Shown piece after piece: positions 20,136-20,645 of a DNA stretch of 64,000 nucleotides; position 1 is the first letter of the stretch, and every line of letters begins with the position of its first letter. The notes beneath the pieces were generated by a model that saw only the letters and a program-made list of their open reading frames with translations, did not search any database and was not told where the DNA came from. Made by a program: the position numbers and the translations under genes. Source of the DNA: Eledone cirrhosa (lineage: Eukaryota); contig OZ024759.1 in NCBI GenBank assembly GCA_964016885.1, positions 31,496,001 through 31,560,000 of the forward strand, in the 5' to 3' direction.

Positions 20136-20185
<50 letters not shown>

Positions 20186-20313
20186 GTAGGAGGTGAGTTT
20201 TATTGTAGTACAATAAAGCAATGCAGATATCGGATAAGAAGCACTCTACAGTTTGTAGGACTGGAGTATACATAATATATAAGAACAAAAGATGGTTAAA
20301 AGAGTTCCATGTA

Positions 20314-20380
20314 TTTTATTATGCGCATTTCAAAAACAAATATCATCATGCAATAATATTTGTGTTTTCATCAGATAAAA
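20314..20380 (-). ncRNA. Type I hammerhead ribozyme (family C)
   Basis: Reverse complement of the 20506-20572 motif. Confidence 0.85.
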
Positions 20381-20505
20381 CAGGAGAACATGATATGAAG
20401 GCTAAAAAAACACTTGTGGATAGTGCAGTTTTAAATCAACATATATGTTGATTTAAAATTGCACTATCCACAAGTGTTTTTTAACCTTCATATCATGTCT
20501 TCCTG

Positions 20506-20572
20506 TTTTATCTGATGAAAACACAAATATTATTGCATGATGATATTTGTTTTTGAAATGCGCATAATAAAA
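20506..20572 (+). ncRNA. Type I hammerhead ribozyme (family C)
   Basis: ttttat-CTGATGA-aaacacaaatattattgcatgatgatatttgttttt-GAAAtgcgcaTA^ataaaa; long stem II, palindromic stem III ATGCGCAT. Confidence 0.85.
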
Positions 20573-20645
20573 TACATGGAACTCCTTTAACCATCTTTTG
20601 ATCTTATATATATGCATATATATATATATGCATATATATATATGC

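Follow-up and report, generated by a model that had tools for sequence, protein, structure and literature searches.

A proposed twin-priming model for the inverted terminal repeats of a Hydra-clade Penelope-like retrotransposon in Eledone cirrhosa

Penelope-like elements leave inverted, 5′-truncated pseudo-LTRs (pLTRs) with a tail on one side only (PMC3846280, PMC8557442 and PMC2377424; these and the other papers named below are cited for the portions of their text that were available). Dimer-type hammerheads have likewise been described, including opposite-strand pairs 100–700 bp apart in Schistosoma (PMC4209133), and Penelope-13_HM, a member of the Hydra clade, combines an inverted 5′-truncated copy with a hammerhead on each strand (PMC8557442). 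The origin of inverted ends in these telomerase-related elements has been called undefined (PMC8557442), and the published proposal for them is antisense self-priming (PMC3846280). In vitro, the Poseidon element PAc cuts and extends both strands, uses two internal start sites that bound the tail, is a predicted dimer and inserts without a need for hammerhead cleavage; the available text of that study contains no discussion of inverted insertions (PMC11167929).

The feature analysed here is itself ordinary, being a known insertion footprint of Penelope-like elements. It lies in a window of 64,000 nucleotides from Eledone cirrhosa (contig OZ024759.1, positions 31,496,001 to 31,560,000). An earlier note, made from the letters alone, had placed three copies of a unit of about 260 nt at 20184, 26646 and 62128, and the coordinates and structure of all three are confirmed; the unit, however, is no free-standing family but the end of an element of 3.3–3.6 kb. 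Element positions, as distinct from window coordinates, take C3 of the hammerhead as 0 and follow the sense strand. On this scale site 1 lies at about +100 and site 2 at about +190, and the tail is the stretch between them.

Copy 1 consists of a long arm on the minus strand (20184–20444), which runs from pLTR position −69 (the A of ATATG) through the hammerhead to the tail end at site 2 and into (TA)n, and a short, tail-less arm on the plus strand (20443 to about 20609), which extends from −69 only as far as site 1 (about +100), where it too meets (TA)n. The arms meet head to head at CATATATG (20440–20447), flush at −69 with a 2-nt AT overlap, and the stretch that separates the two sites, the tail of about 90 nt, occupies 20184–20275 (minus strand). 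A minimal type I hammerhead motif lies at 20506–20572 on the plus strand (C3 at 20512, predicted cut after 20566), and the same motif at 20314–20380 on the minus strand (C3 at 20374, predicted cut after 20320). The whole copy is predicted to fold into a single stem of about 165 bp (−251.9 kcal/mol, z −37), equalled by none of 100 shuffles, and its arms differ by six substitutions and one indel. In copy 2, a tail-less minus-strand arm of 163 nt (26643–26805; −65 to about +97) carries the only hammerhead (26746–26680, minus strand; C3 at 26740, predicted cut after 26686), and the plus-strand tail arm of 114 nt (26803–26916; +77 to about +190) has none; the inverted overlap is merely 31 nt, with a 3-nt AAC microhomology at the junction. 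Copy 3 pairs a tail-less minus-strand arm (62121–62268; −46 to about +100; hammerhead 62228–62162, C3 at 62222) with a plus-strand tail arm (62268–62510; −52 to about +190; hammerhead 62314–62380, C3 at 62320) in a 147-bp stem free of internal mismatches around a 5-nt loop (62269–62273). All three copies are flanked by (TA)n. Together they hold five full motifs; the ribozymes that the earlier note called intact are intact as motifs, complete on both strands of copies 1 and 3 and on one strand of copy 2.

The tail contains an 8-bp hairpin (20199–20217, minus strand) that ends 15 nt before site 2, and in tandem copies it runs on into the 5′ leader of the open reading frame. A weaker, putative bulged hairpin, seen by eye at about 20289–20307 (minus strand), ends about 15 nt before site 1; it is not the predicted lowest-energy fold, and the hairpins that precede the two sites are dissimilar in sequence. 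Within the tail (20184–20275, minus strand; L052:1608–1700) there is also a 30-codon upstream frame, with its stop right at site 2 in tandem copies, which may be chance.

The hammerhead motif comprises a 6-bp helix I, CUGAUGA, a 15-bp helix II with one bulge and the string GAAA-U-GCGC-A-UA, in which a 2-bp helix III is closed by a palindromic GCGC loop of the dimer type. Cleavage is predicted after AUA at +54, and the helix III palindrome is predicted to form an 8-bp intermolecular duplex (−12.5 kcal/mol). By folding prediction the hammerhead is not the lowest-energy fold, in the isolated motif or in a single arm, and Rfam at gathering threshold gave no match in the 64,000-nt window, leaving the motif undetected. 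In the 3′ half of the motif (+43 to +60), 4 of 1,242 bases vary (0.3%) against about 3% in the flanks, and frequent helix II variants keep pairing or are located in the loop; near-invariance on the one hand and pairing-compatible variants on the other indicate that the motif has been under selection in the donors. At least five further families of hammerhead-like motifs were seen in the window (plus strand 8266, 16386, 26003/43497, 59693/62792 and 53860; minus strand 61480 and 12322), and 26003/43497 and 59693/62792 are two pairs of related copies.

Judged by sequence, the copies derive from a young Penelope-like retrotransposon of the Hydra clade and represent its terminal repeat, made up of the pLTR and the tail. 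A 31-nt pattern of the motif has 9,795 exact matches genome-wide, mostly in divergent pairs 0.1–5 kb apart, and a DNA search of the animal's own genome returned 40 scored near-identical copies. A repeat search of the whole window was dominated by microsatellites; tandem arrays were also seen at 1–1700 (42-nt units), 22114–23000 (71-nt units) and 31910–33400 (20-nt units). Upstream of full pLTRs lie a 3′ untranslated region of about 1 kb and then a GIY-YIG domain, full elements measure 3.3–3.6 kb, and pLTR-ORF-pLTR tandems were found at three loci (L072, L077 and L108). One copy elsewhere in the genome, L066, keeps an open frame of 800 amino acids (L066:1492–3891) in which a reverse transcriptase (RT) precedes GIY-YIG. 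Its protein carries RLRWT, DKT 124, YRDD, CNCRIKNKC 660 (CxCx5C), CNLC 760 (CxxC) and CLH 788 (CxH), and has neither CCHH nor GxKF/Y; a single Cys lies between its GIY- and YIG-like motifs. A match to GIY-YIG PF01541 (E 0.0015) is below the curated cut-off. Pfam searches with the whole frame, and PDB sequence and PDB profile searches, gave no direct RT match, and the RT assignment rests on motifs and homologues: YRDD is invariant in 26 homologues, RVT_1 matches 1 of the 26 aligned, and an Atlas search returned clusters with shares of HTH_animal, GIY-YIG and RVT_1. The homologues are 29–42% identical, and one is from Argonauta hians. At about 575–655 the L066 protein has an N/S/T/P-rich linker between RT and endonuclease that resembles the N-rich inserts of rotifer Penelope ORFs.

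The Hydra clade is defined by DKT, CxCx5C, CxxC and CxH in the absence of CCHH and GxKF/Y (PMC8557442), and the motifs of the L066 protein match that definition, so the element appears to fit this clade. RW is kept but K is not, relative to the RWK of the clade (RLRWT in L066, RLRWI in L072). Nearly all of the arm 3′ ends listed run into (TA)n, the target preference of the Hydra clade, and the family has the features of EN+ Penelope-like elements, namely a single ORF with RT and GIY-YIG, pLTRs with an inverted 5′-truncated copy and a one-sided tail, and a hammerhead in the pLTR. With this candidate autonomous partner of Hydra type, the suggestion that the units are Penelope pseudo-LTRs was borne out. 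Assignment to the Neptune clade was rejected, as the GIY-YIG domain lacks CCHH and there is no CX2-5CxxC linker (compare PMC8557442); a non-LTR retrozyme was rejected because the short copies are head to head and the tandems are coding units of 3.3–3.6 kb. The element is also present, with native upstream sequence, in public runs of two other organisms (X5 and X6), and the family is therefore not limited to this genome.

To map the breakpoints we took the first 100 of the 9,795 motif matches in genome order, which represent 63 elements, and placed them on the natural copy L066. An inverted arm is present in 54 of the 63 elements, giving 55 junctions, and nine have none in range. The inner, 5′ ends of the arms span +157 to −3,590, yet 29 of 110 fall at −71 to −66, and genome-wide at least 1,860 loci have both arms at this hotspot (−69), with many junction micro-forms. 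Position −69 is the A of TCATATG, an initiator-like motif, and arms are flush there also where the partner ends elsewhere or is absent. Breakpoints had been proposed to be copy-specific. They do differ among the three copies in the window, but the exact junctions occur 176 times (copy 1), 24 times (copy 2) and once (copy 3) in the genome, and most short copies use the one hotspot. The further proposal that inversion arises at each insertion gains support: among nine copies examined of the 24 with the copy 2 junction there are eight haplotypes, so that recurrence reflects independent formation and not descent, and the hotspot itself shows many junction forms. The ribozyme cut was rejected as the source of the inner ends, as only 2 of 110 ends lie at +50 to +62, near the predicted cut at +54/55. 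The copies do not establish a cap-derived G at −70: G is over-represented in front of ATATG (43 of 93 contexts; among cases with inserted bases, 26 of 53 against 14% G among other inserted A/G/T bases), but the signal is confounded, many cases being explained by the partner arm or by snap-back to GATATG at −25.

The outer ends of the arms follow a strict pattern. In 49 of the 55 inverted junctions of the 63-element sample, site 1 terminates one arm and site 2 its partner; the remaining six comprise three site 2/site 2 pairs (two from one locus with adjacent elements), one site 1/site 1 pair and two others. A further 54 loci, selected for their junction pattern, included 40 two-arm insertions that could be classified, and all 40 obeyed this one-of-each rule; the other 14 loci were solo (8), without a partner in range (5) or unresolved (1). 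Both outer ends show 2–3 nt of TA microhomology in several registers, and across about 90 insertions they are fixed and unequal. At one locus (L070, about 730–745) what looks like a solo arm is in fact paired with a piece of the tail end only about 13 nt long, which indicates that some solos are two-arm insertions.

The two arms of an insertion are also alike. Arm pairs are identical at 16 shared polymorphic sites in 55 of 69 cases, 23 of the 69 having been drawn from a search that ordered its results by their similarity to copy 3, compared with 15% of between-element pairings; divergence is 1.0% within an insertion and 4.0% between elements, and arms more than 500 bp apart share a haplotype in 18 of 23 cases. 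Where both arms are long, their 5′ ends lie within 45 nt of each other in 7 of 18 insertions (permutation mean 1.1; none of 20,000 shuffles reached 7), and the other 11 are strongly asymmetric. Across 49 insertions the tail-less arm reaches further 5′ in 25, the tail arm in 12, and the two are equal in 12 (p 0.047). Among insertions with a single arm flush at −69, the incomplete partner is the tail arm in 19 of 21 (hand count). This tendency of the tail arm to be the less complete is somewhat inflated, because short tail-less partners are harder to detect. Copy 1 is an exception to the same-haplotype rule: its arms differ at 5 of the 16 sites and are reciprocal mosaics of two haplotypes, one of which is that of copy 2, at a distance of 6 kb, down to a rare T at −50 that occurs in 1 of the 137 arms scored. 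Such mosaics are compatible with two templates, or with conversion followed by a flip of the centre.

We favour a model in which both ends of a cut (TA)n tract prime at two fixed sites on the sense RNA of the element and the two cDNAs are joined back to back, and we place its probability at roughly 0.6. The endonuclease would cut both strands within the tract, and each 3′ end would anneal to the RNA, at one of the two sites, through 2–3 nt of TA/AT. Position −69, the A of the TCA initiator-like motif, would be the RNA 5′ end, and cDNAs primed within the 5′ pLTR would run off there to give hairpins of 170 + 260 nt. A single RNA molecule probably templates both cDNAs; the site-1 enzyme would lead, the site-2 enzyme would trail and often stall, and the centre would be closed by end joining through microhomology or short insertions. 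Two target-primed cDNAs would explain all five rules of the arms if they share one template with the site-1 enzyme ahead, and the divergent hammerheads would be a by-product, as one comes with every pLTR and the arms are pLTRs. In vitro, the start sites of PAc do not differ between the two strands (PMC11167929), and this counts against the model because a strict one-of-each rule needs coupled sites. Genomic copies are the source of every step of the mechanism. Once inserted, palindromes are open to trimming or homogenisation, and such trimming or gene conversion could yield symmetry, asymmetry and arm identity, which is the main caveat. As a tentative extension, which we hold at somewhat less than even odds, Penelope-like elements would twin-prime at fixed sites as a dimer on one RNA, with one cDNA per cut end and the trailing enzyme displacing the leading cDNA. 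If so, the inverted pLTR, the tail on one side and the palindromic junctions would, across the whole class, all stem from a single step; thousands of hairpins would be centred on a transcription start and could fire outward both ways, and hairpins that are read through could yield long double-stranded RNA.

Priming at sites 1 and 2 might also take place on two separate RNAs of the same active donor locus, one per dimer subunit. That arrangement would produce the head-to-head form, the fixed outer ends and the −69 hotspot equally well, would give same-haplotype arms if one donor dominates per cell, and suits copy 1, whose two-haplotype arms require two templates or later recombination. We nevertheless consider it unlikely, as it gives no reason for one-of-each site use (49/55 and 40/40), for equal 5′ ends (7/18) or for the incomplete tail arm (19/21). 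In a fold-back, the tail-primed cDNA would turn round on itself on reaching the RNA 5′ end and copy itself; the second arm would be terminated at site 1 by the endonuclease or by annealing to the target, and later deletions across the centre would create the asymmetry. On this route the tail-less arm should lie wholly within the tail arm, yet it is the further-reaching of the two in 25 of 49 insertions, by up to 2.5 kb and including copy 2; tail-less arms moreover occur solo beside (TA)n, and identical 2–3 nt TA microhomology in several registers marks both outer ends. Fold-back would readily explain identical arms, symmetric centres and short snap-back-like insertions at the hotspot, such as CATG, and the tail has elsewhere been ascribed to endonuclease resolution of an intermediate (PMC8557442), but we rate this route as quite improbable.

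Self-priming of an antisense transcript, proposed for rotifer Penelope, is the published interpretation of junction palindromes in these elements (PMC3846280), and palindromic centres are common here. We regard it as very improbable for this family: it leaves unexplained the two fixed outer ends with TA microhomology, the sharp initiator-like stop and the solo arms, and in vitro the template of PAc is sense RNA, copied by target priming (PMC11167929). No more plausible in our estimation is a non-autonomous hairpin copied whole, with the antisense arm and ribozyme as a regulatory pair. The abundance of near-identical short palindromes (at least 1,860), with identical junctions that recur 176 and 24 times, speaks for it; against it, one and the same junction is spread over many haplotypes (8 among 9 copies), micro-structure is highly varied, and 24 of 45 short hairpins have a haplotype in common with long elements. 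An inherited palindromic master was rejected on the haplotypes. Short copies may still serve as single-arm templates in trans. Least credible of all is that the hairpins are assembly or library fold-back artefacts. Among the contigs listed none spans copy 1 whole or the copy 3 junction, but public-run contigs hold a piece across the copy 1-type centre (20405–20488) as well as head-to-head joints that link 20443/20444 with many different positions; one of the runs, X1, may stem from the sample used for the assembly. The arms of copy 1 differ at seven places, with alleles present in other copies, and their reciprocal mosaic argues against a fold-back artefact, as do outer ends that are fixed and unequal in about 90 insertions.

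The hairpins bear on how transcripts of these copies would behave. A transcript from either flank would meet the antisense arm first, and a read-through transcript is predicted to form a duplex of about 150–165 bp; one that starts at −69, the hairpin centre, would carry one arm only. In the hairpins, constraining the RNA to the hammerhead fold carries a penalty of +99 to +101 kcal/mol, compared with +7 to +12 kcal/mol in single-arm RNAs, and at this cost read-through RNA is predicted not to cleave. Self-inhibited cleavage, as the earlier note had imagined it, is thus a sound folding prediction for read-through RNA, but nothing indicates a function: because the same inverted form has arms of up to 3.5 kb, often with one hammerhead, we do not take self-inhibition as a function, and it is predicted to be a by-product. 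The note had also pointed to double-stranded RNA pathways such as siRNA or A-to-I editing. Rare variants in the genomic copies show no sense-strand A>G excess, and inherited editing was rejected, with A>G and T>C at 7 and 7 among 30 rare variants present on both arms and at 4 and 11 among 81 present on one arm. No host coding exon was recognised among the long frames in the window. Rotifers have antisense small RNAs against Penelope-like elements (PMC3846280), and here at least 1,860 short perfect hairpins would be a ready source of double-stranded RNA, if transcribed.

What is new is the family, its 90-nt tail and the counted insertion rules. The literature searched, as far as its text was openly available, yielded no statement of the one-of-each rule, the sharp 5′ hotspot, same-haplotype arms, the less complete tail arm or twin priming for Penelope. 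Thousands of near-identical insertions, countable rules and a naturally open ORF make the model of twin priming on one RNA directly testable, and the value of this young family is as a test bed for the formation of inverted ends.

In L1 twin priming, two target ends prime on one RNA and the inverted 5′ part is joined by microhomology; there the position of the second site varies, and no overlap arises between the arms. Copy 2 resembles such an outcome, whereas in the present family both sites are fixed and the arms overlap by up to kilobases, which would need strand displacement. Poseidon PAc (Frangieh et al. 2024, PMC11167929) offers a biochemical precedent with which the model agrees, with two internal start sites that bound the tail, AT-rich targets and both strands cut and extended; it belongs to another clade, and its sites lie in the ORF, whereas those described here lie in the 5′ leader about 100–190 nt before the first ATG. 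Non-LTR retrozymes (bioRxiv 10.64898/2026.07.22.740005, available text) are likewise short, non-coding, derived from Penelope-like elements and equipped with a type I hammerhead, but they form head-to-tail tandems, and the copies here are head to head and directly traceable to an autonomous element.

The minimal hammerheads of metazoan members (Cervera and de la Pena 2014, PMC4209133) share the type I core, the long helix II and a tiny palindromic helix III that needs a dimer; their junctions are unmapped in the available text, whereas those of the present family are mapped and its motif is known from sequence alone. The inverted pLTRs of EN+ elements (PMC3846280; PMC8557442; Drosophila virilis Penelope, PMC2377424) share the head-to-head arrangement, junction palindromes, a tail at one end and variable arms, with tails of 30–40 nt in the passages available as against about 90 nt here. 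With the Hydra clade (Craig et al. 2021, PMC8557442; Hydra-1_Obim, Penelope-13_HM) the family has in common a single RT-GIY-YIG ORF, RW, a (TA)n target and a hammerhead in the 3′ repeat. It departs from the described members in length (3.3–3.6 kb with a 3′ untranslated region of about 1 kb, where less than 3 kb is usual), in RWT/RWI in place of RWK, and in a hammerhead that, with its 15-bp helix II, 2-bp helix III and GCGC loop, differs from that of Hydra-1_oBim and from all Hydra motifs listed in the available text.
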